A DNA stretch of 64,000 bases from contig DDCH01000004.1 in the NCBI GenBank assembly GCA_002335055.1, forward strand, positions 215,678 through 279,677, read 5' to 3'. The translations under genes and the position numbers were made by a program. Each line of letters begins with the position of its first letter. Position 1 is the first letter of the stretch. Below, piece by piece: positions 6,004-22,627 of this stretch. Below the pieces are notes generated by a model, which was not told the DNA's origin, did no database searches, and saw nothing but the letters and a program-made list of their open reading frames with translations. The DNA is from Sulfurimonas sp. UBA2011 (lineage in GTDB: Bacteria > Campylobacterota > Campylobacteria > Campylobacterales > Sulfurimonadaceae).

Positions 6004-6711
6004 TTAAAGTGAAACATCACAGTCATTGTTGCTTATTAAGCCATCTAACCAATGAAGGTGGTTTTGTGTAAACTCTATCTTATTGTAAAGGCAGTCAAAC
6101 ACTCGAAGTTTTTTGAGATGGATAATCTCATCTTCTAGTTGTGTTAGTCTATTTTTCCAAATTGTTAGTACTTCTAAGTTTTCAAGTTGTCCTATCTCAC
6201 GAGGAAGAAATGTAATGGCATTCTTACCTAGTTCTAATGTTTTTAGCTTCTTTAAGTTTCCTACCTCTTTTGGGATAGAAGTAAGGAGATTTTCTTGCAC
6301 CAAAAGAAGTTTTAGGTTGAGTAGTTGACCTATCTCAATAGGCAACTCTTTAAGGGCATTACCTGAGACATAGAGCTCTTCTAAGTTTGTAAGTTGACCT
6401 ATCTCAGAGGGTAAGCTTTCAAGCTTATTATCAAGAAGATAGAGTTTCTTTAGGTTTTTTAAGTTCGCTATCTCTTTAGGTAACTCAGAAATTTGAGAAC
6501 CCAAGAGGTTTAACTCTACTAGGTTTTCTAACTTAGTTTTATCTCTTGGTAAACCACGATAGTACCCTGCGTTTAAGTAAGAATCATGTTCAATCCACTC
6601 TAACTCAGATATACTATTTTTATCTGCCCATGCAAAGATAGTATCAGCCCACTGAGTGTCTATATCTCTACTTATGGAATCCAAGCATAATTCCAAATAA
6701 TTTGTCCTCAA
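6004..6711 (-). CDS. leucine-rich repeat (LRR) protein; TTG start uncertain
   Basis: It has six full 23-residue repeats and one partial repeat of the form LxxLxLxxNxLxxLPxEIGxLxN (for example LKKLYLLDNKLESLPSEIGQLTN). No signal peptide is visible. The 5' end overlaps the tig 3' end by 17-44 nt, depending on which TTG is used. Confidence 0.85.
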   Translation of the reverse strand: MRTNYLELCLDSISRDIDTQWADTIFAWADKNSISELEWIEHDSYLNAGYYRGLPRDKTKLENLVELNLLGSQISELPKEIANLKNLKKLYLLDNKLESLPSEIGQLTNLEELYVSGNALKELPIEIGQLLNLKLLLVQENLLTSIPKEVGNLKKLKTLELGKNAITFLPREIGQLENLEVLTIWKNRLTQLEDEIIHLKKLRVFDCLYNKIEFTQNHLHWLDGLISNNDCDVSL

Positions 6712-7924
6712 TGAGTCCCATTTTTGCAGAAGTCATTAAGTTGTTCTCTTGATAGTACTTCAGTAGCTCTTGTGCATCTTGACCAGCCATCATTGCTTGG
6801 TATCCAAGGGCCGCATGTACTTCGTTTTCAAGAACTTCTACATTTTCTTTGGCTGCTAAAGCTTCAACAATAAGAGCTATTTTTATACTGTCACGTGAAG
6901 CTTGACGAACAGACTCACGTATCTCCATAAACTTACCCTTATCTTCCATAAATTCTTTATGTTGCTCCTGGGTATAAGCTCTAGTTTTTTCACGAACCTT
7001 CGCATCTATCTCTTGTTCTACTATGTTATTAGGAAGTGTAAAATCATACTTAGAAAGTAGTGCTTCAATCATCTTAGGTTTGATCTCATTCATATAAACA
7101 CGTGAGAGTTCTTCTGAAGTGATTTGATCTGCAAATTTTTCTTTTAGTGTAGCTAGTGTTGCCTTATCATCACTCAATATATTTTTTGCAAAAGAATCAT
7201 CTGGAGTAATAGGGTGTTGTTCTTGAATCTCATGAAGAGTAACAACAAACTTAGCTTCTTTACCTGCTAAGTCTTCAGCTTGATAATCATCTGGAAAATT
7301 AAGAACTACATCTCTAGTCTCACCGTACTCCATACCAATAAGTTTCTCTTCAAATCCAGGAATAAATGAATCTGAACCTATTTTAAGATTAAAATTCTTT
7401 GCACTACCACCTTCAAATGCTTTACCGTCAATAAAACCTTCAAAGTCGATTACAGTTACATCATCATTTTCAATTGCTTTAGGTGTTGGTATAGTTGTAA
7501 AAGGAGCTTGTTTAAGTGCAAATTCTGCAAGTTTCTTTTCTATGTCTGCGGACGAAGCAACAGGTTTAGTAAACACAGGAGTTATTTCTTTATAGTCTAC
7601 ATCTGTATGAACTACAGGACTAATTGAAAGTTCTACCTCAAAAAATACTTCATCTTTTCTCTGCTCATATTTTTTAAGACCAGGTTGACCTAGGATAGTC
7701 TCAACAGCAATATTTGCCTCTTTGACACCTGCCGCAATAAAGTCTTTAAAAACTTCTCCAGCTGCATCTTGCTCGATTTTTTCGTCAGTTGGAGTATCGT
7801 CTTTTTTATCTTCTTTAGCTATTGCGGCTTTTCTTATCTCAACTTTTTCTTTTATAAGAGAGTTCTCAACTGTACCACTTAAAATAAAGTTTATATCATC
7901 TATTTTTTCTACTGTTACTTTCAC
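6668..7924 (-). CDS. tig: trigger factor
   Basis: The 418-aa product has the MKVTVEKIDD... N-terminus, a central FKBP-like segment (FEGFIDGKAFEGGSAKNF..IPGFEE) and a C-terminal chaperone arm. Confidence 0.9.
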   Translation of the reverse strand: MKVTVEKIDDINFILSGTVENSLIKEKVEIRKAAIAKEDKKDDTPTDEKIEQDAAGEVFKDFIAAGVKEANIAVETILGQPGLKKYEQRKDEVFFEVELSISPVVHTDVDYKEITPVFTKPVASSADIEKKLAEFALKQAPFTTIPTPKAIENDDVTVIDFEGFIDGKAFEGGSAKNFNLKIGSDSFIPGFEEKLIGMEYGETRDVVLNFPDDYQAEDLAGKEAKFVVTLHEIQEQHPITPDDSFAKNILSDDKATLATLKEKFADQITSEELSRVYMNEIKPKMIEALLSKYDFTLPNNIVEQEIDAKVREKTRAYTQEQHKEFMEDKGKFMEIRESVRQASRDSIKIALIVEALAAKENVEVLENEVHAALGYQAMMAGQDAQELLKYYQENNLMTSAKMGLIEDKLFGIMLGFHK

Positions 7925-8126: not shown

Positions 8127-8351
8127 CTACTCTTCGTGACCAGCCATTTCCATTGTGATACAGTTACGATCAAGCATATCAGTACAAACGTATACACATA
8201 GTGCACACCCTTTACATCTATCTTCATCTACCCAAGATGTGTTACCATCTTTGTTGAACATAAGCGTATTTGCTTCTGGACAATATAATGTACAAGTGTT
8301 ACACTTGTACTCAGCACACATATCTGAATTAACTTTTGCTACATAATACAT
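8127..8351 (-). CDS. 2-oxoacid:ferredoxin oxidoreductase delta subunit (2x[4Fe-4S] ferredoxin-like), operon 1
   Basis: The 74-aa product has CAEYKCNTCTLYCP and CKGCALCVYVC cluster motifs. It is the last gene of operon 1 and is identical in protein sequence to 18883..19107. Confidence 0.85.
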   Translation of the reverse strand: MYYVAKVNSDMCAEYKCNTCTLYCPEANTLMFNKDGNTSWVDEDRCKGCALCVYVCTDMLDRNCITMEMAGHEE

Positions 8352-8362
8352 TTATAAAATCC

Positions 8363-9064
8363 TTATACTTTTAGTCTAACGATTAACTCGTTACCAGTAA
8401 TATCAACAGTATCAGCCATTTTGAATGTTTCATTGATAACATTCATGTTAGCTTCAAGTAGTTGCTCTTTTTTCTTGAACTTTTTCTCAATAGCAGAGTC
8501 AAGTGCAGCAGTACCACCAGATGCAACGAAAGAGTTTCCAAGGAATCTCTCACGAACTGCAGCTTCGATATGCTCTGTATTAACAAGCTTAGTAAGACCA
8601 AGAACCATACCCATCATTGCCATGTTTGTTGCAAGCTCAGTACCAGCAATTTTCATTGCTAGTCTAGTTGCGTCAAACTGAACAACAGTTGCGTTTTTTT
8701 CTTCAAGTACTGCTCTGTCATCTTCATTAAGAACATCAAAGTCAGTATTGATGATGATTAGTGCATTTGGCTTAAGACCAGTATAAAATGGCATAGTATA
8801 AGACTTACCATGAGTTACAACTTGTGAGTGGTAAATCAGGATAATATCTGGGTAAATTACTTCACCTACTTCATAAATTGGATCTGTTGATGCTCTTACA
8901 TAAGCTTCAACAGGTGCCATTCTTTTCTCAGAACCAAAAAATGGAACTAGAGATGCATAGTTACCTGCATTATCAAGACATGAACCAAGGATGTGTGCAG
9001 TAGTTACAACACCTTGACCACCTAGACCAGAAATACGTATATTATATCTTTTCTTTTCAGCCAT
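8363..9064 (-). CDS. 2-oxoacid:ferredoxin oxidoreductase gamma subunit, operon 1
   Basis: It starts MAEKKRYNIRISGLGGQGV, the gamma GxGGQG motif. I prefer the ATG at 9064, which is 1 nt after the beta stop and matches the paralogue's N-terminus, over the listed start at 9091. Confidence 0.85.
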   Translation of the reverse strand: MAEKKRYNIRISGLGGQGVVTTAHILGSCLDNAGNYASLVPFFGSEKRMAPVEAYVRASTDPIYEVGEVIYPDIILIYHSQVVTHGKSYTMPFYTGLKPNALIIINTDFDVLNEDDRAVLEEKNATVVQFDATRLAMKIAGTELATNMAMMGMVLGLTKLVNTEHIEAAVRERFLGNSFVASGGTAALDSAIEKKFKKKEQLLEANMNVINETFKMADTVDITGNELIVRLKV

Positions 9065-9065
9065 T

Positions 9066-9983
9066 TTAGTTAACCGCCTCTGCTGCTGCAACTTTTGCTG
9101 CTTTTCTTGCTTTTCTTGCTACTTTTTCTTCGCCTTCAACACGCTCGATTACTATTTTAGCTTCATCAGTCATATACTCATCAAATTTGAATCTACCTTT
9201 ACCAAGCTCAATAGCATCAGCAAAAACATCTTCAGTAGGAATAGAATACTCAATGTTACAAGAAGTGTAAGCATGAATAAAAGTTGGACCAACTTCACGT
9301 GCAACGAAGATTGCTCTTCTAATAACTTTTGCAGCTTGTTTGATGTTAGTTGGTGACATTCTTACAATGTAAACACAACCAGCAGCTTTAGCTAAATCAG
9401 TCGCAGGCATTTTCTCGAAGTCTTTACCCATTGGAGCCATCTTAAGAACAGCACCTTTTGGAGACATACCAGATGATTGACCACCAGTGTTTCCGTATAC
9501 TTCATTGTCAAGCATGATTGTAGTAAATCTTTCACCACGAATCCATGAGTGCATAGTCATAGAGAAACCAATATCCATAGTACCACCGTCACCGGCAATA
9601 GTAAGAACATCTTTAGTCTTATCAGGGAAACGTAATCTAAATGCACGAGTAAGACCAGAAGCCATTGCATTTTGATCACCATAGTTACCATAGATAAATG
9701 GAACAGCAGCTTGAGAAATCGCAAGACGACCACAACCAGCAGTACCAATTGTTACTGTTTCTTCCGGGCATGGAAGTGCAGCAAAAATTAATCTAATATA
9801 GTAAGCCATCCAGCAACCTGAACACATAGGGTGCTCTTCCATTAATTCTTTAAACTGACCCATGTTACCTGGACCAGCTTCTTCTTGTGTCTTTCCAAAA
9901 GGACCGAAGTCGATTAACTCAACGTAGTCTTTTGGTAAATATTTCTTAAATCTCTCTGATGGAGTAATATATGCTAAACTCAT
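9066..9983 (-). CDS. 2-oxoacid:ferredoxin oxidoreductase beta subunit (TPP-binding), operon 1
   Basis: It carries the TPP motif GDGGTMDIG...DNEVYGNTGGQ and N-terminal cluster cysteines (CSGC...CP...GC). Confidence 0.9.
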   Translation of the reverse strand: MSLAYITPSERFKKYLPKDYVELIDFGPFGKTQEEAGPGNMGQFKELMEEHPMCSGCWMAYYIRLIFAALPCPEETVTIGTAGCGRLAISQAAVPFIYGNYGDQNAMASGLTRAFRLRFPDKTKDVLTIAGDGGTMDIGFSMTMHSWIRGERFTTIMLDNEVYGNTGGQSSGMSPKGAVLKMAPMGKDFEKMPATDLAKAAGCVYIVRMSPTNIKQAAKVIRRAIFVAREVGPTFIHAYTSCNIEYSIPTEDVFADAIELGKGRFKFDEYMTDEAKIVIERVEGEEKVARKARKAAKVAAAEAVN

Positions 9984-9998
9984 AGTTTTATCCTTTTA

Positions 9999-11183
9999 TT
10001 ATAATTTAATATTGTGCTCAATACCGAGCGCATCGTATAGTTCAACCATGATAAGTTCAACTGGAAGTGTCATACCACCGTAAACTCTTGGACCTTCAAC
10101 AACGATACCACCATTAGGGATAGTCGCTTGAATTTCCTTAGATAACCAACCAATAATGTTGTGCTCAGGAACGATAAGAGCTTTAGCATTTTTAGCAGCT
10201 TCACGGATTTCATCTTTAGGGAAAGGTCTGATTGCTTTAACTTTAATTAAACCAACTGATAAACCTTCCTCTTGTGCGTATCTCCATGCTTCTCTAGCTT
10301 GTGCAGCAGCACAACCAGATGCAACAACAAATACATCAGCTTCAGGGTTTTGAACTTCAATTGGTCCACCAAGATACTCATAGATATATTTCATTGCACG
10401 AGAGTTAGAATCCCAAATCTCTTGTTGCCATACTGAGTGAATTAAATAACTCATAAAGTTTGACTTTTGAACAGGAGCATCACGTTGAATTCTTGCTGGA
10501 GGAGTTTCATTGTCCATTGCTGGAACTGGTGAAGCTACTGGATCAAATTCTTTGTAAACTAAGTCTTCAGACATCATGTCTACATAACCCTTAGCGTGTG
10601 TTACGAAGAAACCTTCTGTAGCAACTGCAACTGGAATATAAACGTCAACTTTTTCAGCAATAGCGAATGCTGCAAGTGTGAAGTCAAATGTATCTTGCTG
10701 ATTTTCAGCATGTAACATAACTGCACCACAATGCATCATATAAGCCATTTCGATATTATCAGGTTGAATTGATAATGGAGCATTAATAACACGAGTAAGG
10801 ATACCAAGTACCGCTGGAACTCTGTGTCCTGGCCATGAAGCGATTGCCTCTAAACCACGGATAAGTCCTGGTCCTGAAGTAGCTGTAAATAGACGAACAC
10901 CAGCTCTTGATGCACCAGCGATTGCTGACATTGTACCAAGCTCTTCTTCCGCTCTATAATACTCTTTAATGTGACCTTGAGCAAAAACATCACCAACAAG
11001 GTGCATAACCTCTGATTGTGGTGTAATTGGGTAAGCAATAGCCATGTCAACATTTGCTCTTTTAACAGCTTCAGACATTGCTTGCGCACCTGTGATGAAG
11101 TGTTTCTCTCTTGGAGCCTCATGTAGAAGATAGTTCATCTCTACTTGTTTTTTATTTAATACTGGTCTTTGAACTGCACTCAT
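9999..11183 (-). CDS. 2-oxoacid:ferredoxin oxidoreductase alpha subunit, operon 1
   Basis: AYPITPQSE, SGPGL and the C-terminal IRPFP segment are typical of KorA/PorA-type alpha subunits. Confidence 0.9.
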   Translation of the reverse strand: MSAVQRPVLNKKQVEMNYLLHEAPREKHFITGAQAMSEAVKRANVDMAIAYPITPQSEVMHLVGDVFAQGHIKEYYRAEEELGTMSAIAGASRAGVRLFTATSGPGLIRGLEAIASWPGHRVPAVLGILTRVINAPLSIQPDNIEMAYMMHCGAVMLHAENQQDTFDFTLAAFAIAEKVDVYIPVAVATEGFFVTHAKGYVDMMSEDLVYKEFDPVASPVPAMDNETPPARIQRDAPVQKSNFMSYLIHSVWQQEIWDSNSRAMKYIYEYLGGPIEVQNPEADVFVVASGCAAAQAREAWRYAQEEGLSVGLIKVKAIRPFPKDEIREAAKNAKALIVPEHNIIGWLSKEIQATIPNGGIVVEGPRVYGGMTLPVELIMVELYDALGIEHNIKL

Positions 11184-11195
11184 TTAATTTCTCCC

Positions 11196-11909
11196 TTATT
11201 CCGCGTCAGTGATATGCTCACCCTTCTTAGTCATGATGAGACTTCTATACTCGCCATAATCAGCAGGTGATAATGTACTGTTGTCCTCTTTTGGTAAAGA
11301 TGGATTTTCAGGTGGTAAAGTAGTTTCCCACTTAATGCCTAATTTATTTCTTTCTTCAATCACTATTTCTTTGAACTTAGCGATATCTGAAGCATGTAAA
11401 TCTCTAATTGATGCCATAGCTTCTTCATGTCCCATATAAGCACATAATGCAACTGTATAACAGTTAGTACCAGCACGAATCATTCTAAGTGTAAGGTTAG
11501 CATAGTGACAATGCACACCAACAAAAATACAAGCTTCGATTCTATTATCAAGGATTGTTAAGTTGGGGTGATTTGGGTTAATCTCAGCCTTAACATCAAT
11601 CTTTGGATATTTAGGTCTGTAATCTGGCATTGGAATAATTTTACAATTAGGAATTTCAGATGCTAGATCTAAAATAGCTGCTGATTTTTCTGCAACATCT
11701 TCTTTCCAGTCCCAAAGAACTTGAGGCCCAGGGAATATTGTTGGATTTTTTCTTGTAAGTAATGCAATAGCTGCATCTCTCATCGCCTCTTCTGGTGTCA
11801 CAGTATTACCATAGAGTAAAGCTGAACCTTCTGGTGCTAGTTCAACCCCCATCGCTGGTGCGGACGTTGGCATATAGCCTGCGGGGCCTACTTCTACTAT
11901 TTTCGTCAT
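11196..11909 (-). CDS. fifth (epsilon-like) subunit of a five-subunit 2-oxoacid:ferredoxin oxidoreductase, operon 1
   Basis: It is the first gene of the operon and a paralogue of 19250..19819, sharing IFPGPQVL, DYRPKYPKID, INPNHPNLT and GVHCHYAN. A subunit of this size accompanies the For/Por five-subunit enzymes of Hydrogenobacter, as I recall. Confidence 0.65.
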   Translation of the reverse strand: MTKIVEVGPAGYMPTSAPAMGVELAPEGSALLYGNTVTPEEAMRDAAIALLTRKNPTIFPGPQVLWDWKEDVAEKSAAILDLASEIPNCKIIPMPDYRPKYPKIDVKAEINPNHPNLTILDNRIEACIFVGVHCHYANLTLRMIRAGTNCYTVALCAYMGHEEAMASIRDLHASDIAKFKEIVIEERNKLGIKWETTLPPENPSLPKEDNSTLSPADYGEYRSLIMTKKGEHITDAE

Positions 11910-12432
11910 ATTAACTCCTTATATTTAATGAAAAAGTTTTGTTTAATACACTCTAATAAGTATATAAAACATTTTAAATTCAATATCTAATTATACATTT
12001 ACAACTAGATATAAAGTCCTACAAAAGAGTATAGCATCAGCTACTCTCTCGAAAAACTTGAATTTGTGCCTAATTGTATCGAAATAATCTTTAAGTAGAT
12101 TAAAATAATCCTCTGAATTTTCTATTAAGGACATAGATACAGTGGATTTAAAAGGAATATAAAGGAGAAAAGAGAGCATAGTATTTCAGATTGTTAGTCT
12201 AATATATGGCTTTAAGCATAGTAAAATAGGGCTTTATCGAAGATATGTTACTTGTTTTGTGACATAGTAGGAGATAGTTCTAAATATCGAGGAAAATGCG
12301 ATTATGTCAGGAGCTTTAAATTGTCTTATGTGGGTATATTCGTTACACTAATATATGGAGAAAAACCATATATTAGCTAGGGTGAGTATATTTGTTACAC
12401 ACTGATATAATAAATGTGTGTTAAAAATCTAC

Positions 12433-12690
12433 TTAACAACCGCAAGAACCACAACTATCTGTACTACAACTATCTTCTGAACCATTATTAGCTGCTACTC
12501 TAATTAAATATTCATTATCATTTGACTTTTCAGCATAAAACATATGTGTTTTACAAAAATCTTCATTCATCATTTCCATGAGACTTATTGTGTATTTGTA
12601 AGCTTCTGGTTGAAATTGAAATGTAGACTCTTTTTTATATTCACTTTTTAGAAAACAAGCACATTCGCGCTCCATTGTAACTGTATACAT
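12433..12690 (-). CDS. small Cys-rich protein, CxC...CxxH family, with CSTDSCGSCGC tail
   Basis: The 85-aa ORF has AAGGA 5-6 nt upstream and a TATAAT hexamer (12728-12733) about 38 nt upstream. It is a paralogue of 12862..13179, sharing MYT..[MI].[RK]ECACF.KS and N..FC..H.F.A. Confidence 0.6.
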   Translation of the reverse strand: MYTVTMERECACFLKSEYKKESTFQFQPEAYKYTISLMEMMNEDFCKTHMFYAEKSNDNEYLIRVAANNGSEDSCSTDSCGSCGC

Positions 12691-12821
12691 AGTGTTCCTT
12701 TTGGGTATTATTAACGAAAGTATAGTTATTATAACTGAAATAGAGGTATTTTTAATATGTAGTTGTGGTTGATAAAGATTTTTTTATTTTAAAGAAGTGA
12801 AAGTTTAGAAAGATATGCAAG

Positions 12822-12840
12822 AAGTGAGGTATACTCACTT
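12822..12840 (-). terminator. putative terminator of the dab operon
   Basis: AAGTGAG-gtata-CTCACTT (7-bp stem) lies 22 nt after the stop of the 105-aa gene and is followed by a moderately T-rich tract. Confidence 0.4.
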
Positions 12841-12861
12841 GTTACATAGTGTACAGTGTGC

Positions 12862-13179
12862 TTAGTTTCCACCAGCATCTTTTGGTGGTTTTTCACCAGC
12901 ATCAAAGCCGATTACAACACCACTTCTACTAACAAGCTCACTTGCTGTCTCAATATCATCTTCATCGTCTTCAATAGGTCTAACATTACTATGAATAATA
13001 ATCTTATCTTGATAGTCAACAGCTTGGAAATAATGCTTCATACAAAAGTTTTGATTCATAAGGCATTCTATAACACGTGCTTTATTAATCATGTCCTCTC
13101 TTGTCTCAAATTCCATATTGTTTTTTATGTCACTTTTTATAAAACAAGCACATTCTTTGTCAATTTCTATTGTATACAT
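12862..13179 (-). CDS. small CxC...CxxH protein, last gene of the dab operon
   Basis: The 105-aa ORF has AAGGAG 5 nt upstream and lies 26 nt after dabA. C10, C12, C46 and H49 are at the same positions as in the 85-aa paralogue. The C-terminus is acidic and Gly/Pro-rich. Confidence 0.6.
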   Translation of the reverse strand: MYTIEIDKECACFIKSDIKNNMEFETREDMINKARVIECLMNQNFCMKHYFQAVDYQDKIIIHSNVRPIEDDEDDIETASELVSRSGVVIGFDAGEKPPKDAGGN

Positions 13180-13205
13180 TTATTCTCCTTGAATATTTTT
13201 TGAAA

Positions 13206-16073
13206 TTATATCTCTTTTATAACAATAAACTCACCATTTTCATAAGAATAGACTTTTTTAGCCTCTCTATCTATGATGACGGGGCGAATCCATTCATTTA
13301 AAATAAATTCTTTTGCGATAGAATTCTCTACTGCTTTACCTACCATTTCTAAAGGTGCCTCAACAAATGAGATAAGACGAACCGGTTCGTGGTATGCTTC
13401 ACCTTCTAAAAATACAGACTGAATAGGTAGCCCAATTTTTAAGTCACTGTAGTTACCACTAAATACACCGACTTTTGATACGACGTTGTGATACACTTTT
13501 GAACCTGCACCATAGACATGGTTATCAACTGTAGAGAAGTAATGTTCTAGATTAATCCACTCACCTACAATTAATGGTCCATCAAAAATAGCTGTAAGAA
13601 TTTCAGCATCTTGGTTATCTACTTTATAGTCATAAGAGTGCATAAAAAATCTATTGTTAAGTTCTAGGTGTTTAGTATAAGACCTTGGCCCTGCAAATAC
13701 ACCCATATTACGTGCTAGTCCCCACTCAGGTCTAGTCTCAGACCAGTCCATAGACTTTATAAGCATCTCTTCTTTTGTGTTTGTAAAAGGAAGAGTTTGT
13801 GATCTCTCCTCACGTGAAAGTTGTGATGCCTTGTTGAAGTCATCTTTAATTTTTGAAAACTTTTCAGACTGTTCATCATTTAAAATTTCAGTATCAAAAA
13901 ACTTAATTTCATCAGTTGATGTAATATGAAGACCAGGCATAAACCTTGTATTTTCTGGAAGATGAATGCCTTTTTCTTTGATTTTTTCTCTAACATCTGG
14001 AGTATTAGCAATCATACAAAGCGCACGTGTGTTTGGTAAACTAATATTTCCACCACAAGCACCACAATCAAGTGCTGATTCAAAAGGATTATTATCAGAA
14101 ACAGATCCATGTCCAATTATTGTAATAAATTCTGGAAAGTTTTTCACCTGTCCAATCATTGTTAAGTATTTATATAGATAAGAAACTTTTTCTTCTAAGG
14201 TAAAACCAACCATAGCAAGCTTTTTCTTTTGGTACTCATAATCTTCTGGTGTAATCTGATATGATGTTTTAAGCTCATCGATCAAAGTGTCAGGTAAGTC
14301 CTTTTTTAATGCTTCATTAAAAAGAAGGTGTTTACGAAGATTTTCTACATCATCATCAGTACAGTTTTTCTTATCATGATCATCTAAAACAGCATGAATA
14401 ATCTTAGTATGCAGTTTTTTAACATAAAATTCAATTTCATCTGATGAGAGTTTATCAAGTGTGTAAGTCGTTTTTGGCTTACTTGGTTTCATCTTAGAAA
14501 AGAACTTGTTTGTTTTGATCGGTGAAAATGTTTTACCAAATAAAGTAATACCAAAAATCCAACCAATGGCTTCTACCATTATATATGGAGTATATGGGTT
14601 GTTCTTTAAGTCACTTAAAACTTTTTTTGTCGTTTTGTAAGTTCCTTTTTTTGAACTGTACTCTTCATGTACTTCAACCGGTAATTCAAATACAACATTT
14701 TGTGGTTTAATGATAGCAGGTGCTAAAAAAAGCTCATGTGCTTTGTCAAACTCTACAAAGGCTATAGGAAGACCAAGAAAACCTCCCGCTCCAAAAGTTT
14801 CATAGGCACCTTGGCTTTCAATTGAGCGGCGCATAACTTCTGAACGAACATCTAAACAAAAAGTTGCTGAGGCTATTGCTTTTTCTTTTACAGGTACAAC
14901 ATTAACAACTTCATCTACATAATGACTAATATATGTGTCTTCTAAAGATTTAAGCCAGATATACCCTTCTTCTTCTCGTAACTTATCTAAAATAGGAGAG
15001 AGCTCAGTTAAAGGAAGTTTACTTTGCAGAACTTCATTTGAGTGTTGAATTTGAAGTGCATCTAAATGTAATTCATTTTTAACATGGTCTGCTAAGACCT
15101 TTGAAGTCTCTTCCTTGTCTTCTAACTCATCTAAAGCTATTCCAAATAGCATATTTTTATGTTTGAGTAGTTGTAAAATTACATCACTTAAGTTTGCTTC
15201 AGCATATGCAGCAAAAATCTTAAAAGTACTAATCTTATTCGTTTTTACTGCTTTGAGTTCATAGTAGAGTCTAATAGCCATATAGTCTATAAGCTCAGAT
15301 GGATACTCTTGTTGTGAAACATTATCTGGATCTTCTGAACGATACTTAATAAATCCTGCCCAACCATGAAGTTTAAGAAGGTGTGTTAAAAAGTAAGACT
15401 CAATGTCCTCTACTTGAAGTTCTTTAAATGCCTCTTCTACAAAACTCTCAGCATTTTTTGGATAATCCACAGCCTCAAAAAGTTTAAAAACCTCAAACAT
15501 ACCTAAGTTTCTGTTTGGCATAGGCATTGTAGTCTGGTCTTCATCTAGAAAACGAGAGATAAATTCAATAATACTCTTTTCAATTCCATCTTTATCATCA
15601 AGCCCAAAGAGTGCATCATTAATCTCATATAGAGTCATGTGTTTGATAAGTTGGGCTAACCATGCTTTCTCATCAGAATATAAAGAGTGTGACTGTAAGT
15701 ATGCATATAAATCATCATCAGTTTTTTCTACTTTAGAAATAAGTTCTACTCTAAGACTTGACCATAAAGGACTTACTTCCATTAAGAACTTCTTAGCAAA
15801 CTCTAAAGGAATATTAAAACCCTTGTCTGTGAGAACTTTTTTGATATTTTCTTCAAATATGCTATCGTTAATTTTACCTTCTTCATAAAGATCTTTGTAA
15901 TATGAAGAGTCCATGTAAACCTGACCACCAAAAATACTTTTAGCCTTACTCAGTCCATCTTTAAAGTGCATGTTTTCAAAACCCTTTAAAGGGTTATGAT
16001 GAATAAACGATCCAATAGGCCAATAATGCGGTACGGTGCTCTTTACAGCATTAAGTTTTTCTATAATACTCAT
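13206..16073 (-). CDS. dabA: DabA (DUF2309 family), catalytic subunit of a DAB inorganic-carbon pump
   Basis: The 955-aa product starts with HYWPIGSFIHHNPL. It has beta-carbonic-anhydrase-like metal-site motifs FCLDVRSE (C-x-D-x-R) and GHGSVSDNNPFESALDCGACGG. It is encoded next to a NuoL-like subunit. Confidence 0.85.
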   Translation of the reverse strand: MSIIEKLNAVKSTVPHYWPIGSFIHHNPLKGFENMHFKDGLSKAKSIFGGQVYMDSSYYKDLYEEGKINDSIFEENIKKVLTDKGFNIPLEFAKKFLMEVSPLWSSLRVELISKVEKTDDDLYAYLQSHSLYSDEKAWLAQLIKHMTLYEINDALFGLDDKDGIEKSIIEFISRFLDEDQTTMPMPNRNLGMFEVFKLFEAVDYPKNAESFVEEAFKELQVEDIESYFLTHLLKLHGWAGFIKYRSEDPDNVSQQEYPSELIDYMAIRLYYELKAVKTNKISTFKIFAAYAEANLSDVILQLLKHKNMLFGIALDELEDKEETSKVLADHVKNELHLDALQIQHSNEVLQSKLPLTELSPILDKLREEEGYIWLKSLEDTYISHYVDEVVNVVPVKEKAIASATFCLDVRSEVMRRSIESQGAYETFGAGGFLGLPIAFVEFDKAHELFLAPAIIKPQNVVFELPVEVHEEYSSKKGTYKTTKKVLSDLKNNPYTPYIMVEAIGWIFGITLFGKTFSPIKTNKFFSKMKPSKPKTTYTLDKLSSDEIEFYVKKLHTKIIHAVLDDHDKKNCTDDDVENLRKHLLFNEALKKDLPDTLIDELKTSYQITPEDYEYQKKKLAMVGFTLEEKVSYLYKYLTMIGQVKNFPEFITIIGHGSVSDNNPFESALDCGACGGNISLPNTRALCMIANTPDVREKIKEKGIHLPENTRFMPGLHITSTDEIKFFDTEILNDEQSEKFSKIKDDFNKASQLSREERSQTLPFTNTKEEMLIKSMDWSETRPEWGLARNMGVFAGPRSYTKHLELNNRFFMHSYDYKVDNQDAEILTAIFDGPLIVGEWINLEHYFSTVDNHVYGAGSKVYHNVVSKVGVFSGNYSDLKIGLPIQSVFLEGEAYHEPVRLISFVEAPLEMVGKAVENSIAKEFILNEWIRPVIIDREAKKVYSYENGEFIVIKEI

Positions 16074-16801
16074 AGTAGTATCTCCTTAAGTCCATATAGA
16101 CTAAACAATAGTAACATACCAACGATAAGCATGTGTGGTATTTTTTCTTTTATTGTCATATGTACATAATGTATGTTTGCGTTTGGTCTTCCAAAAAGTG
16201 TTTTTTTCATTACACCCATAGAAAGAAAAAAGTTACCAAAAAAGAGTGTTATAACAACAGCAAACCAAAGAGGATTCGACTCGCTTCCTAAAATATAGTG
16301 TAGAAAAAAGAGTGAATTTGGAAAAGGTGGATATAGCGCTACTGCAATCAGGTAAAAAGTTAAGTAACTACCAATGTATGGTCTCACTAGTGTGATCCCT
16401 GTTATGTAACGATAATTAGCACTACCATAGTTTTTCTCATAAAATCTTCCTATCAAGTAGAGACCTGAAAGGGATAAAAGAAGAGAAAGACTATATAAAG
16501 AACTCTCTCCTTCATAAAGAACAAAAAATGGAGCATTAACAAATATAAAATAATATGCAAGTTTATAAAAGTTTGTTGTTTTTGTTGCTCTATAGATAGT
16601 AAAGACTGCATTTATGAGTGAAATAATTACAAGTGATGTTTTATGCTCATTTGGTACATACAGTGAAAGCCCAATATTAGATAAAAGTGCAAAAGCACTC
16701 AGTAAAAATATATGCTTACTTTTAATAGCAGGAATTTTTTCCAATATAAGATAATAAGGAACTCCTGCGGCTAATATCAAAAATAGAATATTATAGATCA
16801 T
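16070..16801 (-). CDS. polytopic membrane protein resembling the C-terminal half of an antiporter-like (NuoM/N/L) subunit
   Basis: The 243-aa product has about 7-8 hydrophobic helices. The segment ALYPPFPNSLFFLHYILGSESNPLWFAVVITLFFGNFF recalls the PP.GF..K region of Nuo/Mrp antiporter subunits. Its start overlaps the dabB stop by 11 nt and its stop overlaps the dabA start (ATGA). Confidence 0.65.
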   Translation of the reverse strand: MIYNILFLILAAGVPYYLILEKIPAIKSKHIFLLSAFALLSNIGLSLYVPNEHKTSLVIISLINAVFTIYRATKTTNFYKLAYYFIFVNAPFFVLYEGESSLYSLSLLLSLSGLYLIGRFYEKNYGSANYRYITGITLVRPYIGSYLTFYLIAVALYPPFPNSLFFLHYILGSESNPLWFAVVITLFFGNFFLSMGVMKKTLFGRPNANIHYVHMTIKEKIPHMLIVGMLLLFSLYGLKEILL

Positions 16802-18422
16802 TTTTATTCCTTTTTAGGGCTTTAATAATATTAAAGAAGTAACCTTCTTTTGCTAGAAATTTATAAAATGACCATTTAAGGCTATTTTTGTTTTCGTTAG
16901 TTTTAAGGACTTTTGCAAAGTGTTGTGTATACATAAATAACCACCCTACAATCATAATAGCGGCTAAGATAACAAGTAACATAATAGTAGTTATGTTAAA
17001 TGTTGCTGCTTCATAAAAGAGAATTGCATTTTCTCCGTAGATAAAATGTTCTAATGATAAACCAATAAACTCATATGTAAAAAGAATAATAACAAATGAA
17101 CTTACAAGTGCTAATATAACCTTGAATGAGTCGGCTTTAGATACTTTAAAGAATGAGAGAAAAAGTTGTGTACCAGTTAACCAAGCAAAGGCCAATATAA
17201 TGATAGAAGCATTAAGCTCAAAGAAGTCATCAGTTAATACCATTTTTACACCTACAAAAGTCACAACAGGTAAGATAGTGAAAAAAGCTAAGTAGTTAAA
17301 CAGTTTTTTACTATTACTTTTAATCTTTTCTTCCCAAAAGAGCTCATATGTAAGGCGTTTAGGTAGGTTTGAGTCATGACGCGCTAACTTAATCAATGCT
17401 CCTGACTCTAAAAAGAGTGTAGCTTTGAATATACCATGGACTATGAGGTGATAAATAGCAAGAGAGAAAGCACCAAGGCCTATCTCCATAATCATATATC
17501 CCATCTGTCCAACTGTGGAGTATCCTAAAGAGCGTTTGATATCAGAGACAACAAGCATAATCAAAGAGGCAAAAATTGCTGTTACTAAACCAACTACAAA
17601 AGCGATGTTAAGTACAGCAGGTGCAAGTAGTAAAAGAAAAGCGAGTTTGTTAAGTAAAATTCCTCCTACATTAACTACACCAGCATGCATAACAGCAGAT
17701 ACAGGAGTAGGGGCTTCTGATGTATATGGTAACCAGATATGAAAAGGCATAATAGCTGACTTCATCATAGCCGCTATTAAAAAGAGTAAACCAATAACAA
17801 AAATCATTGGATTATCTACTGGTTCATGCGACATAGCTAACCATTTCTCACTTAATATAGTTAAGTCTAAACTATCAAATGTTTGATATGTTAAGATAAT
17901 AGCGATTATAAAGACTAAATCGGCAGCTTTATGAATTATCATAACCCATTTTGCATTTTTTACAGCAGTGTTTGAGCCGACATTAAATGAAACAAGCAGA
18001 TATAAACTAATACTAAGTAGTTGCCAAGCAAGAGCAAGTACTATAAGGTTGTTACTCATTACAAATAGATATATAGAAGCGAAGATAAAGTTTAAAAGAA
18101 TAAAAAATCTTCTATAACCTGCTTCATCCCACATATACTTAGTTGCATACTTTCTTATGACAAGACCGAGTATAGCAACATAAGGGACTAGTATCGCTGA
18201 GAGTTCATTATATACAAGAAGGCCATCAAAGCCAATAATCTGTGTATCATTACTTATGACATAATATGTACCATACAATGCAAGTAGTGCTATCATACTT
18301 GAAAGCATGATACTAACCCTTGGTATAAGTTCTTTTTTTCCGATAAATAGCAATAAGAATGCTATGAAAATTGGGATACCCGGAATGAGTAATATTATTT
18401 TTTCCACTGTAACTCCTGACAT
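16791..18422 (-). CDS. dabB: DabB (NuoL/ND5-like proton-conducting membrane subunit)
   Basis: The 543-aa product carries KSAIMPFHIWLPYTSEAPTPVSAVMHAGVVNVGG and DIKRSLGYSTVGQMGYM...HGIFKATLFL, the PF00361-type signature as I remember it. Confidence 0.85.
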   Translation of the reverse strand: MSGVTVEKIILLIPGIPIFIAFLLLFIGKKELIPRVSIMLSSMIALLALYGTYYVISNDTQIIGFDGLLVYNELSAILVPYVAILGLVIRKYATKYMWDEAGYRRFFILLNFIFASIYLFVMSNNLIVLALAWQLLSISLYLLVSFNVGSNTAVKNAKWVMIIHKAADLVFIIAIILTYQTFDSLDLTILSEKWLAMSHEPVDNPMIFVIGLLFLIAAMMKSAIMPFHIWLPYTSEAPTPVSAVMHAGVVNVGGILLNKLAFLLLLAPAVLNIAFVVGLVTAIFASLIMLVVSDIKRSLGYSTVGQMGYMIMEIGLGAFSLAIYHLIVHGIFKATLFLESGALIKLARHDSNLPKRLTYELFWEEKIKSNSKKLFNYLAFFTILPVVTFVGVKMVLTDDFFELNASIIILAFAWLTGTQLFLSFFKVSKADSFKVILALVSSFVIILFTYEFIGLSLEHFIYGENAILFYEAATFNITTIMLLVILAAIMIVGWLFMYTQHFAKVLKTNENKNSLKWSFYKFLAKEGYFFNIIKALKRNKNDL

Positions 18423-19249: not shown

Positions 19250-19819
19250 ATGGCAAATCAAGGCCCCGCGTATTATTCACCGTATCCTGCGGCATTATAT
19301 GAAGGTGTAATTACACCACCAGAAGGAAAAGCACTTTTATTAGAAGAAGTGGTAGACGAAGAAATTGCAATGAGAGAAATCGCAAAGCAAATGTTAACTA
19401 AAGAAAATGCAACAATTTTCCCTGGTCCACAAGTGTTATATGGTTACAATGAAGAAGCAAAGAAAAAAGCTACTCTAATTAAAGAGATGGCTGAAGTTCT
19501 TAATGCTAAAATGATTCCAATGTATGACTACAGACCAAAGTATCCTAAAATTGATGCTGAAGTTGAAATCAATCCAAATCACCCGAACTTAACAATTTGG
19601 CATAACAACATTAAAGCAGCAATTTTTATTGGTGTTCACTGTCACTATGCTAACGTTGCATTAAAAATGGTTAGATGTGAAACAGATTGTTACACTATCG
19701 CTATTTGTGGTTTGTCAGGGCATGAAGATGCTATGGCTACATTAAGAGATCAGCATTCTTCAGAACTTGAGAAATTTATCAAGATAGCTAGAGAAGTAAA
19801 AGCAGAACTAAAATTATAA
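19250..19819 (+). CDS. fifth (epsilon-like) subunit, operon 2
   Basis: This 189-aa protein is a paralogue of 11196..11909 and lacks that protein's roughly 45-aa C-terminal extension. Confidence 0.65.
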   Translation: MANQGPAYYSPYPAALYEGVITPPEGKALLLEEVVDEEIAMREIAKQMLTKENATIFPGPQVLYGYNEEAKKKATLIKEMAEVLNAKMIPMYDYRPKYPKIDAEVEINPNHPNLTIWHNNIKAAIFIGVHCHYANVALKMVRCETDCYTIAICGLSGHEDAMATLRDQHSSELEKFIKIAREVKAELKL

Positions 19820-19834
19820 GAAAAGGAGAACTAA

Positions 19835-21034
19835 ATGGCATCAATTAAAGATATGACAGATACACATAACTGGTCTGGACAGAAATTAGTTACAGCAGAT
19901 CACATGCTTTTCGAAGCACCACGTGAAAAGCACTTCATGACTGGTTCTGAAGTTTTAAAAGAAGCGGTAAAAAGATGTACAGTAGATGCATCAGTATCTT
20001 ACCCAATTACACCACAATCAGAAGCAGCTCACCTTATCGGTGAACTATGGGCTGAAGGTTATGTTGGTACATACTTCCGTGGAGAAAATGAGTTCGGTGT
20101 TATGTCAGAAGTTGCTGGTTGTGCAATGGCTGGAGCAAGAACTATTACTACGACTTCAGGTCCTGGTACACTTAGAGCAATGGAAAACTTTCCACAATGG
20201 TCTGGTACAAGAATTCCTTGTCAACTAATCCTTATGGCTCGTGGTATTAACTCACCACTTACTATTCAACCTGATAATCTTGAAGTTACATTCATGTTAG
20301 AAACTGGTTGTATGATTTGGTATGCTGAAAATGTTCAAGAGTTATTTGACATGAGTATCGCTGCATTTATCGTTGCTGAAAAGCCTGATGTACATGTGCC
20401 TATCGTTACTGTTGTTGATGGTTTCTTTGTATCTCATACACGTGAGTCTGTAATGTTACCAGCTGATGATATCGCTCTTTTACCTTACGAGCCATACAAA
20501 TCTCCATTACCTCCGATTGATTCTGAAACTCCTCCAGGTCGTTTCTTAAGAGATCCATTTGTAATGAAGTCTAACTATATTTCTTATGCAACTCACGCTT
20601 CATGGCAGTGGGAAGTGAGATCTGCAGTTGAGCGTTCACGTCCATATGCTAAGCACTTCCTTAACGGTCTTGTTCATGTAACTGGAGCTCCTGACGCTGA
20701 AATCGCATTTGTTACTTGTGGTACTGCTTCTCATCAAGCAAAAGAAGCTGAAAGAGAGTTAATGAAACTTGGTGTTAAAACTAAGGTTATTAAACTTAGA
20801 ACTATCAGACCATTTCCAAAAGAAGAACTTCTTGCTGAGCTTGAAGGCGTTAAACATATTTTCGTACCAGAATTCAACGTTGTTGGTTGGTTAGAAAAAG
20901 AAGTTAAAACTGCTCTTCATAACAATCACACAGCTGAAGTTGTTGGTGGCCCTAGAGTTGCTGGTGGTATGAGTATGCCTGCTGAAGCGATTCTTAAAGA
21001 AGTGTTTGAACACATTAACGTAGAAGGAAAATAA
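19835..21034 (+). CDS. 2-oxoacid:ferredoxin oxidoreductase alpha subunit, operon 2
   Basis: It carries the SYPITPQSE, SGPGT and IRPFP motifs. Confidence 0.9.
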   Translation: MASIKDMTDTHNWSGQKLVTADHMLFEAPREKHFMTGSEVLKEAVKRCTVDASVSYPITPQSEAAHLIGELWAEGYVGTYFRGENEFGVMSEVAGCAMAGARTITTTSGPGTLRAMENFPQWSGTRIPCQLILMARGINSPLTIQPDNLEVTFMLETGCMIWYAENVQELFDMSIAAFIVAEKPDVHVPIVTVVDGFFVSHTRESVMLPADDIALLPYEPYKSPLPPIDSETPPGRFLRDPFVMKSNYISYATHASWQWEVRSAVERSRPYAKHFLNGLVHVTGAPDAEIAFVTCGTASHQAKEAERELMKLGVKTKVIKLRTIRPFPKEELLAELEGVKHIFVPEFNVVGWLEKEVKTALHNNHTAEVVGGPRVAGGMSMPAEAILKEVFEHINVEGK

Positions 21035-21035
21035 G

Positions 21036-21905
21036 ATGGCAATTGATATATACAAAATCAACCCTGAATTCCGTGACATTATGCCTAAAGAGATTATTGA
21101 TCTTGAGGAAAATGCAACATGGGCTCAAAACCGAATAAAACCACGTGGTATTAAAGAAATGCCAGATACTAAAGAGATTCTAGAAGAACACTCTTTATGT
21201 GCTGGTTGTCCTGAATCTGCTGCACTTAGATATGTTCTAGCAGCATTACCATGTCCAGAAGAGACTATAATTGTTAACTCAACTGGTTGTACTTCTTTGA
21301 TGTTCCCACACATCGCACTTCATACTGTTCACTCACTTTTTGGTAATCAAAATGCTGTTGCAACTGGTATTAAGCGTGTTCTTGACTGGAGATTTCCAGA
21401 TAAGCAAAAAGATGTTATGGTTCTAGCTGGAGACGGTGCTACTGTTGATATCGGTCTTGACTATACACTTCAGTCTTTCTTTAGACAAGAAAATATCACT
21501 ACAATTTGTTTTGATAATGAAGTTTATGCAAATACTGGTGGACAAGAATCAGGTGCAACTCCAAAAGGTCAAGTTTTCAAAATGGCACCTTTAGGTAAGA
21601 AATTTGAAAAAGTTAAAATGTGGGAATTAGCTACTACTGCTGGTTGTCATTATACTATGAACATGACTGCTTCTGCTCCTAAAGCAGTTGCTAAAGCTGT
21701 TCGTGAAGCTATTTTAGTTGCAAGAGAAATCGGACCAACATTCCTTAACATTTATACTCCTTGTATTCTTGAAATTGGACTTAGTGCAAATGAAGGTCTT
21801 GGCGAAATGAAAGATCAAGATAAAGATAGATTTGCATCTTACAAGTTTGTTTCTCCAGAAGCAGAAGAATACTTGAAAAAATGTAAAGCAGAAGGAAAGT
21901 TATAA
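21036..21905 (+). CDS. 2-oxoacid:ferredoxin oxidoreductase beta subunit (TPP-binding), operon 2
   Basis: It carries GDGATVDIG...DNEVYANTGGQ and the CAGC...CP...GC cysteines. Confidence 0.9.
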   Translation: MAIDIYKINPEFRDIMPKEIIDLEENATWAQNRIKPRGIKEMPDTKEILEEHSLCAGCPESAALRYVLAALPCPEETIIVNSTGCTSLMFPHIALHTVHSLFGNQNAVATGIKRVLDWRFPDKQKDVMVLAGDGATVDIGLDYTLQSFFRQENITTICFDNEVYANTGGQESGATPKGQVFKMAPLGKKFEKVKMWELATTAGCHYTMNMTASAPKAVAKAVREAILVAREIGPTFLNIYTPCILEIGLSANEGLGEMKDQDKDRFASYKFVSPEAEEYLKKCKAEGKL

Positions 21906-22627
21906 TGGCTAAAGATTCAATCAAAGTAAGACTTCCGGGTCTTGGTGGTCAAGGTGCAGTTACAGCTGCACACATCGCAGCTACTGCTGCTGATACTGAA
22001 GGATACTTCGCTGTGTCTAATCCATTTTTTGGTGCAGAAAAGCGTATGGCTCCATCTGAGTCTTATGCAAGAATAGGTACTGTGCCTATTTACGATAGAG
22101 GGGAAGTAATTTATCCTGATATCGTTATGATTTTCCACCCACAAGTTATTACTATGGGTAAATCATACACTATGCCTTTTTATGCTGGTATTAAAGATAA
22201 TGGTCTTGTTATTATTAACTCTGATATTGATCTTTTAACTGATGTTGATAAGAGAATTCTTGCTGACAAAAATGTTAAAGTACTTACTCGTGACTTTACT
22301 AAGTTTGCAATTGAGCAAGCTGGTACTGAACTTGCTACAAACATGGCTATGCTTGGTGCATTATTTGGTGCTCTTGGTACAATCTCTAAGTCTGCTATTG
22401 AAGAGGGAATCAAAGATAGATTCCTTAAGAAATATACAGCTTCTGGTGGTACTGCTACACTCGATTCAGTTATTGAAAAGAAATTTAAGAAAAAGAAAGA
22501 ACTTATTCAAAAAAATCTTGATACTGCATCAGCTGCTTATGATTTAACTGCTGCTTGGGCTAAAGAAGTAGGACTAGAACAAATTCTAGAACCTTCTAAG
22601 CACAACAACGGTAACATCGTAAAGTAA
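21905..22627 (+). CDS. 2-oxoacid:ferredoxin oxidoreductase gamma subunit, operon 2
   Basis: It starts MAKDSIKVRLPGLGGQGAV and is collinear with 8363..9064. Confidence 0.85.
   Translation: MAKDSIKVRLPGLGGQGAVTAAHIAATAADTEGYFAVSNPFFGAEKRMAPSESYARIGTVPIYDRGEVIYPDIVMIFHPQVITMGKSYTMPFYAGIKDNGLVIINSDIDLLTDVDKRILADKNVKVLTRDFTKFAIEQAGTELATNMAMLGALFGALGTISKSAIEEGIKDRFLKKYTASGGTATLDSVIEKKFKKKKELIQKNLDTASAAYDLTAAWAKEVGLEQILEPSKHNNGNIVK

Follow-up and report, generated by a model that had tools for sequence, protein, structure and literature searches.

Two small genes that follow the dab operon of Sulfurimonas sp. UBA2011 probably encode non-essential accessories of the Campylobacterota DAB1 complex. 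They lie on the minus strand of the 64,000-nucleotide stretch analysed here (contig DDCH01000004.1, positions 215,678 to 279,677; called the window below, with positions counted from its first letter), downstream of dabA, and are named gene 1 and gene 2. Both genes are real, are under selection and code for an invariant Cys3His signature, and their synteny with dabA is strict and sub-type-specific. DAB/DAC pumps are the chief CO2 uptake systems of chemoautotrophs and are being transferred into crops and industrial strains, while Sulfurimonas, Sulfurovum and their relatives are major primary producers at vents and redoxclines. The DAB system itself was known; what is new, going by the literature and databases searched, is a conserved pair of soluble proteins with a putative metal site attached to it and, with them, a new small protein family. 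The presence of such a protein after every dabA examined points to an unrecognised layer of pump metallation or regulation in autotrophs using the reductive tricarboxylic acid (rTCA) cycle. The finding has its bounds: it is restricted to one lineage, it concerns proteins that are non-essential for activity, and the mechanism is conjectural.

The linkage to dabA was assessed in both directions. In about 70 of the best 80 genome loci found with the small protein, dabB, a dabC-like gene, dabA, gene 1 and, optionally, gene 2 are encoded in this order on one strand. Conversely, 47 metagenome loci were retrieved by DabA alone (59–89% identity), 40 of which were evaluable (complete dabA 3′ end and enough downstream DNA). 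A family member starts within ~170 nt downstream of dabA in all 40, a count that includes as positive four loci with gaps of −3 to −18 (coordinate artefacts). The two-way co-occurrence, which holds for Campylobacterota DabA of at least 59% identity, bears out the attachment to the dab operon that had been proposed in a sequence-only reading of this DNA. The spacing between dabA and gene 1 ranges from 2 to 189 nt (median 43 nt, 111 loci) and the one between gene 1 and gene 2 from −1 to 2545 nt (median 152 nt). In the window, oxidoreductase genes are found further downstream, but at other loci they are absent, distant or inverted. Since their position and orientation vary and the small genes stay, the association is with dabA; a link to the downstream oxidoreductase cluster instead of dab was ruled out on this ground.

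The order of the small genes is likewise fixed when their tail types are classified over all 132 loci. The first protein after dabA carries an acidic run followed by LV..S.V.IGFD and a G-x-N end (~105 amino acids (aa); 75 loci) or is of a Sulfurovum type with the acidic run only (75–81 aa; 33 loci). The second has an SC.TGSCGC-like tail (52 loci) or a GGGCCGGGHC-like tail (17 loci). The acidic-tail type thus comes first in 108 cases, and second only in one locus whose dabA is broken, while the Cys-tail type is second in 69 cases and first in none. Presence or absence of the IGFD tail is fully confounded with genus. Hybrid proteins of ~110 aa were also observed in which an acidic run and a motif of the IGF[DN] type occur together with a CCGGGxC end (L052:3436-3768, from a Sulfurospirillum bin, and P0141). 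The L052 hybrid directly follows dabA, and a second paralogue was not detected at that locus. Joining both kinds of tail in one chain, the hybrids argue that the two tails serve one process.

Gene 1 (12862..13179, minus strand) codes for a 105-aa protein that comprises a Cys3His core (aa 1-67), an acidic run (aa 68-77), the segment EDA..LV..S.V.IGFD (aa 78-93) and a short Pro/Gly end. Its ligand codons (13033..13152, minus strand) are those of C10 (13150-13152), C12 (13144-13146), C46 (13042-13044) and H49 (13033-13035), the first two read from the sequence and the last two computed from the start codon. The 85-aa product of gene 2 (12433..12690, minus strand) shares this Cys3His core (aa 1-67) and continues into a disordered tail rich in Cys, SEDSCSTDSCGSCGC, that terminates in CGSCGC and so fits a CxxCGC end. 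The two proteins are paralogous (BLASTP E = 3e-12, 36% identity over residues 1-53), with C10, C12, C46 and H49 at the same positions, and their C-terminal tails, acidic in one and Cys-rich in the other, are unrelated; paralogy, identical ligand positions and unrelated ends had all been noted before and hold. No further paralogue of the family was found in the window. Purifying selection acts on both genes, with a median dN/dS (ratio of nonsynonymous to synonymous substitution rates) versus the window genes of 0.14 for gene 1 and 0.32 for gene 2. The two types are further set apart by specific residues: an extra Cys39, seven residues ahead of C46, is present in 102 of 103 unique gene 1 products versus one of 68 unique gene 2 products, and a Cys-cluster end in 66 of those 68 gene 2 products, as CxxCGC (12/68), Cx3-4CGC (38/68) or CCGxGxC (16/68).

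Signals for expression of the two genes were inspected in their 5′ regions. Gene 1 begins 26 nt after the TAA stop codon of dabA, and the spacer (13180..13205, minus strand) carries an AAGGAG ribosome-binding site (RBS) 5 nt ahead of the gene 1 ATG; the 26-nt distance and the AAGGAG had been described previously. The 171-nt spacer between gene 1 and gene 2 (12691..12861, minus strand) contains a promoter-like TTAAAA-16-TATAAT at 12755..12728, and gene 2 is preceded by an AAGGA-type RBS. Both the TATAAT and the RBS that had been assigned to gene 2 are thus present, but promoter-like sites occur in this AT-rich stretch as often as expected from shuffled sequence, so that the TTAAAA-16-TATAAT site is no evidence on its own. 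No minus-strand terminator-like site lies in either spacer, and an Rfam search of the spacers gave no family, the one match being CRISPR-DR18 at chance level (E = 0.84). The small proteins are probably specific to the Campylobacterota lineage, cytoplasmic and co-expressed with DabB-DabC-DabA. A GC-rich hairpin, CCACCAGCATCTTTTGGTGG, is found at 12865-12896, within the final codons of gene 1, those for the PPKDAGG end. On the plus strand it is scored as a terminator-like site; it also accounts for the CRISPR-DR18 match (E = 0.84), and it is probably coincidental.

The family was defined by searches of increasing depth. Single-query searches returned homologues of gene 1 in at least 125 clusters and of gene 2 in 19. 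An alignment of 43 sequences of the gene 1 and gene 2 types has M1, C10, C12, S16, F24, N42, F45, C46, H49, F51 and I62 invariant. A profile search of 1.84 billion representatives yielded 129 proteins, of which 108 (50%-identity representatives) have the CxC...CxxH motif, with a spacing of exactly x33 in 94 of the 108; the remainder are mostly fragments. Across 104 diverse full-length members, no columns but those of C10, C12, C46 and H49 are invariant. The proteins all stand alone, most of them 65-115 aa in length, without an Hsp33 chaperone or linker domain. A 180-aa representative from a 1-kb contig (P0148) has a long extra C-terminal region beyond the core, and a Pfam scan of the members gave a single Seryl_tRNA_N match (PF02403, E = 7e-22); the extended 180-aa member could be a frameshift or a real fusion. 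Every member that carries an organism name belongs to the Campylobacterota (Sulfurimonas, Sulfurovum, Sulfuricurvum, Arcobacter, Thiovulum, Hydrocurvibacter) except for one from a contig binned as Spirochaetia UBA6919 (L053:10001-10306). This one is an acidic-tail protein of 101 aa (...VYVHFD...) with no dabA within 10 kb, its neighbours being restriction/modification-like genes, a FixC-like flavoprotein and a GGDEF-EAL protein; the contig could be mis-binned or result from horizontal transfer.

The family is undescribed. The products of genes 1 and 2 have no family match in Pfam or NCBIfam, searches of the Protein Data Bank (PDB) with the single proteins and with the family profile gave no match, and none was found in PHROGs, which was checked since one source labels an Arcobacter member "phage protein". 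The literature searched on DAB has no such component either, in agreement with the novelty claimed for these proteins at the outset. What had to be revised is the view of the family as DAB-attached. This is correct for the acidic-tail and Cys-tail sub-types, which are the only ones linked to dab, but not for the family taken together, whose diversity lies mostly in core-only stand-alone proteins of 65-70 aa (~68 aa), to which 85 of the 108 motif-bearing representatives belong. They are single genes in unrelated contexts: after trpA, beside trpS, 2 nt upstream of serS or after a MarR gene. In the serS case, a 68-aa core-only member ends 2 nt ahead of the gene (L133:4001-4207, L134:196-402). Stand-alone Cys-tail members exist as well. 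In Sulfurovum, proteins of 82-84 aa end in GGCCGGGHCS without dabA nearby (L064:2003-2251, L072:3888-4139, L073:4983-5234, L075:9350-9604, L078:7193-7447), and in five loci they divergently adjoin a cytoplasmic Fdh-alpha/NasC-like molybdopterin oxidoreductase (TIGR01591 E = 1e-136, below cut-off). Cys-tail members may therefore pair with other metalloenzymes.

This distribution bears on the idea that there is no functional connection to the pump, the small proteins being metallothionein-like metal-buffering or detoxifying proteins of vent and sediment Campylobacterota that share the dab transcript. Such an arrangement would account for the many members that stand alone in unrelated contexts and for the stand-alone CCGGGHC-tail proteins that adjoin the molybdoenzyme rather than dab. 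It is nonetheless improbable, because gene 1 is found at every one of the 40 dabA loci evaluated, across genera and through saturated synonymous divergence, at short gaps and with sub-type-specific residues. Gene order, strand and sub-type would not survive chance hitch-hiking.

Each protein appears to consist of a ~67-residue domain built on one metal ion held by Cys10, Cys12, Cys46 and His49, to which a specialised flexible tail is added. AlphaFold2, run with the 104-sequence alignment, models the gene 1 core (residues 1-70) at a predicted local distance difference test score (pLDDT) of ~96, and its tail at 55-66 with no secondary structure. The model has the arrangement beta(2-6), short helix(11-15), beta(22-24), helix(27-44), beta(49-55), beta(59-66). 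The CxC pair comes after strand 1, and C46 and H49 after the long helix, ahead of strand 3. For gene 2 the core is modelled alike (pLDDT 90-96), and the tail scores below 50. The beta-beta-alpha-beta-beta core, confidently predicted, would be a new small fold: Foldseek searches with both models gave nothing significant (best E values of 0.34 and 0.44 in the PDB and 0.11 in BFVD). The bound ion is most likely a structural Zn(II), which is favoured because it is usual for a domain of 65 aa.

Candidate relatives were sought among proteins with similar ligands. The resemblance to BFD-like domains that had been put forward in the sequence-only reading does not stand. The BFD ligand set is CxC-x(31-34)-CxxC, whose spacing accommodates the x33 of the family, but the fourth ligand is an invariant His here. 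The PF04324 profile search was negative, the window proteins having no match at E ≤ 1 and the 104 members none, while hhalign against E. coli Bfd gave a probability of 0.3% and the predicted fold is alpha/beta, not helical. Homology to CDGSH/NEET proteins was rejected too (no significant Pfam match; hhalign against mitoNEET 0.4%). Their signature is C-X-C-X2-(S/T)-X3-P-X-C-D-G-(S/A/T)-H. The likeness is one of composition only, a 3Cys-1His set matching C10, C12, C46 and H49, whereas the spacing from CxC to the next Cys is 8 in NEET versus 33 in the family and the second pair is CxxxH versus CxxH.

An alternative is a labile [2Fe-2S] cluster in a new fold, with NEET- or BFD-like ligands and one iron per pair, that would serve in electron or cluster transfer, or in pH or redox sensing, near the pump. 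The four residues are invariant, and their order and composition (CxC...C...H) agree with the CDGSH/NEET 3Cys-1His set and with the CxC...CxxC of BFD. The lack of any sequence relationship (no significant Pfam match and the hhalign values above), the spacing of 33 versus 8 in NEET, the different fold and the absence of known redox chemistry in DAB make this quite unlikely.

The nearest motif analogue appears to be the zinc switch of Hsp33, a resemblance of motif rather than a membership. The Hsp33 zinc redox-switch motif is CxC...CxxC, as given in a review of the subject. Its zinc domain has, like the core of the family, CxC, a spacer of ~30 residues, Cxx[C/H] and one metal (putative in the family) within ~60 aa, but the fourth ligand of Hsp33 is Cys and the domain is fused to a chaperone, while the family has His and stands alone. 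In E. coli Hsp33 the spacing between the Cys pairs is ~30 residues, the zinc motif of the domain being CxC-x(27-32)-CxxC. An hhalign comparison with an approximate Hsp33 query aligned the CxC pairs over 44 columns at a probability of 6%, the second ligand pair being out of register.

A thiol/zinc redox-switch regulator would make use of this analogy. The Cys3His-Zn site, Cys39 and the Cys tail of gene 2 would sense oxidants or reactive sulfur, and an Hsp33-like change of shape would gate or release the pump, thereby matching energy-costly CO2 uptake to the state of the O2-sensitive rTCA carboxylases on both sides of the operon. The CxC-x33-CxxH motif is closest to the Hsp33 redox switch (CxC...CxxC), and the CxC motifs align by hhalign, with a probability of only 6%. 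Cys39 is specific to the dab-adjacent first type, two 2-oxoacid:ferredoxin oxidoreductase clusters flank the operon, and dispensability in heterologous hosts (see below) is what one expects of a regulator. Homology to Hsp33 is unsupported, however, given the low probability, the shifted second ligand pair and the absence of Pfam and Foldseek matches, and Gly/Ser-rich tails of the CxxCGC and CCGGGHC kinds typify metal chelators more than sensors. We regard such a switch as possible and nearly as likely as the metal handling considered below. On a more far-reaching reading, a vectorial carbonic anhydrase of DAB type would here have its first known dedicated regulators. Their Cys3His centre would be labile, with redox-sensitive Zn or a [2Fe-2S] cluster of NEET-like kind, and would sense the cell's redox or sulfide state and switch the proton-driven pump on or off through a tail plugged into DabA. 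This is rather unlikely; if true, the stand-alone 68-aa relatives would represent a wider family of thiol-switch modules in the Campylobacterota.

Our best guess, which is tentative, is a metal-handling module made up of the two proteins, by which the zinc site of DabA would be kept loaded in sulfidic, Zn-poor habitats. The gene 1 product would dock on the pump via its acidic run and the L-V..S.V.IGFD peptide. This tail motif is conserved at 0.74, versus 0.82 for the core, despite its predicted disorder, which would suit a peptide that becomes folded upon binding a partner. A candidate docking surface, named here as speculation, is DabA 481-540, a membrane elbow together with a +7 basic juxtamembrane stretch; it is the most conserved part of the DabA middle (0.93 and 0.82), and the arm that follows it is the least conserved (0.49). 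The Gly/Ser-rich thiolate tail of the gene 2 product (CxxCGC or CCGGGHC) would carry a soft metal ion. Acting together, the two would keep the buried Cys/Asp/His/Cys zinc of DabA metallated where free Zn is scarce. They would be dispensable for catalysis itself, and the pump would for this reason run without them in Zn-replete heterologous hosts.

Known metal chaperones give some precedent for the gene 2 tail. HypB and SlyD have, like it, a flexible terminal thiolate-rich motif, and H. pylori HspA, a Ni chaperone, has a Cys/His-rich tail. HypB binds Ni(II) with picomolar affinity at a CxxCGC site, and peptide maquettes of this motif show a response to Zn(II) (PMC12284835). The HypB site is square-planar and uses the N-terminal amine and three thiolates (PMC12284835), whereas the gene 2 motif is C-terminal, so that a HypB-type amine ligand cannot contribute. 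The context differs too: the motif varies within the gene 2 family (Cx3-4CGC, CCGGGHC), and there is neither a GTPase domain nor a hydrogenase context.

Several observations weigh against a metal-handling role. The gene 1 product, which is the universal first protein, has no Cys-rich tail; a gene of the gene 2 type is present at ~60% of the loci, leaving ~40% with no second gene beside dabA; the family is mostly stand-alone and away from dab; and known dedicated Zn chaperones are COG0523 GTPases, unlike these small proteins. Moreover, sequence does not discriminate between Zn, Fe-S, Ni and Cu at the putative site, and according to the literature the proteins are not required for inorganic carbon (Ci) uptake in heterologous hosts.

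The latter point rests on work with the DAC of Sulfurovum sp. AR, which consists of three genes of 1614, 729 (T) and 2880 bp (PMC11934965). These three genes rescue a can deletion in C. necator (PMC11934965) and, as cited in that article from Schmid et al. (2021), raise intracellular dissolved inorganic carbon (DIC) in E. coli. Because the three-gene DAC is functional in these heterologous, Zn-replete hosts without the small genes, these encode accessories and not subunits required for core activity. DAB/DAC structures date from 2026, and the complete machine is given as DabA, DabB and sometimes DabC. A 2026 DAB1 cryo-electron microscopy preprint describes a DabA/DabB/DabC heterotrimer from T. 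albus, purified as a stable complex, in which DabC, a small transmembrane protein without Pfam family, cannot be dispensed with. Neither the DAB1 nor the DAB2 preprint mentions a fourth component that is soluble, and two DIC-toolkit surveys of rTCA autotrophs have none either. DabC resembles the small proteins in being a lineage-variable extra of DAB1-type operons without a Pfam family, but it is a membrane protein, encoded between dabB and dabA, and required, whereas the small proteins are soluble, encoded downstream of dabA, and dispensable in heterologous hosts.

The closest functional analogue is CupS. In the cyanobacterial NDH-1MS complex, CupS binds CupA and may stabilise the contact between CupA and NdhF3. 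The genes are ordered ndhF3-ndhD3-cupA-cupS, with cupS last. Like the gene 1 product, CupS is small and cytoplasmic and is linked to the subunit that hydrates CO2, with zinc, in a vectorial carbonic anhydrase coupled to an antiporter. It is also non-catalytic, and its position at the end of the operon is that of gene 1 after dabA. The two share no similarity of sequence or fold (PDB sequence searches; no Foldseek hit at E < 0.3), binding is putative in the case of gene 1, and CupS has to our knowledge neither a Cys3His site nor a Cys-rich tail. By analogy, the gene 1 product could be a passive structural subunit that binds DabA and steadies its attachment to DabB/DabC, the metal being purely structural and the gene 2 product a spare or unrelated small metal-binding protein. 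The operon logic that parallels CupS-CupA in NDH-1MS, the strict synteny and the conserved tail motif of gene 1 are consistent with this. We consider it improbable, since the three-gene Sulfurovum DAC works without gene 1, T. albus DAB1 was purified as a stable heterotrimer, no PDB chain is similar in sequence or fold, and the fixed pairing with a Cys-tail paralogue would be left unexplained.

A parallel of a different kind is provided by SbtB and the carboxysome-associated PII proteins, which are small, soluble, non-essential regulators co-encoded with Ci uptake systems. They have a PII fold, bind nucleotides and lack a metal site, and bear no similarity to the family described here. SbtA/SbtB pairs are listed in PMC11934965. 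The accessory role proposed for genes 1 and 2 is readily testable, given that the proteins are small and soluble, an assay in E. coli devoid of carbonic anhydrase exists and the Sulfurovum DAC has been cloned.

The dab operon that precedes the small genes in the window starts with dabB (16791..18422, minus strand; 543 aa), which codes for the NuoL-like proton-translocating membrane subunit (DAC 'M' subunit; PF00361 E = 4e-43, PF00662 and a NuoL-type NCBIfam). dabB is also upstream of dabA in related loci. dabA (13206..16073, minus strand) encodes the cytoplasmic beta-carbonic-anhydrase-like subunit of 955 aa (PF10070 E = 5e-204; DabA2 of PDB 9rd0 E = 4e-78), with the zinc-ligand motifs of beta-carbonic anhydrases (C406-L-D408, H655 in GHG and C670 in DCGAC). 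Between them lies an open reading frame (ORF) for a polytopic membrane protein of 243 aa (16070..16801, minus strand) that has no match in Pfam, NCBIfam or the PDB. Its position is kept in nearly all related loci, and in descriptions of DAC operons the T gene is placed between those for M and C. We infer from its position and size, and from the T gene of Sulfurovum sp. AR, that it is DabC, the 'T' (tiny) subunit of DAC; the gene sizes of the Sulfurovum DAC, which are close to those of dabB, the 243-aa ORF and dabA in the window, support this assignment. The nearest related loci are from Sulfurimonas genomes, with DabA 91-93% identical in L001 and L005.

The operon is flanked by two sets of 2-oxoacid:ferredoxin oxidoreductase genes, at 8127-11909 (minus strand) and 19250-22627 (plus strand), so that the CO2 pump sits between rTCA carboxylases. 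The downstream set comprises a CO_dh epsilon-like subunit, POR_N, TPP_enzyme_C, POR gamma and a 2x[4Fe-4S] ferredoxin. The second set is ~43-54% identical to the first and is found beyond dabB in many related loci. Gene 2 and the oxidoreductase cluster are separated by a spacer of 250 nt. Within it, a 17-nt sequence is repeated directly (12193-12209 and 12342-12358) and a 15-nt one in inverted orientation (12199-12213 and 12362-12376), both centred on CTAATATATGG. The repeats at 12193-12376 may be an operator or promoter element of the downstream cluster. Further along, downstream of the trigger factor gene (6668-7924), a 235-aa ORF (6004-6711, minus strand) is made up almost entirely of leucine-rich repeats (L..L..L.L..N.L..LP.EI). 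Proteins with such repeats are uncommon among free-living Campylobacterota.

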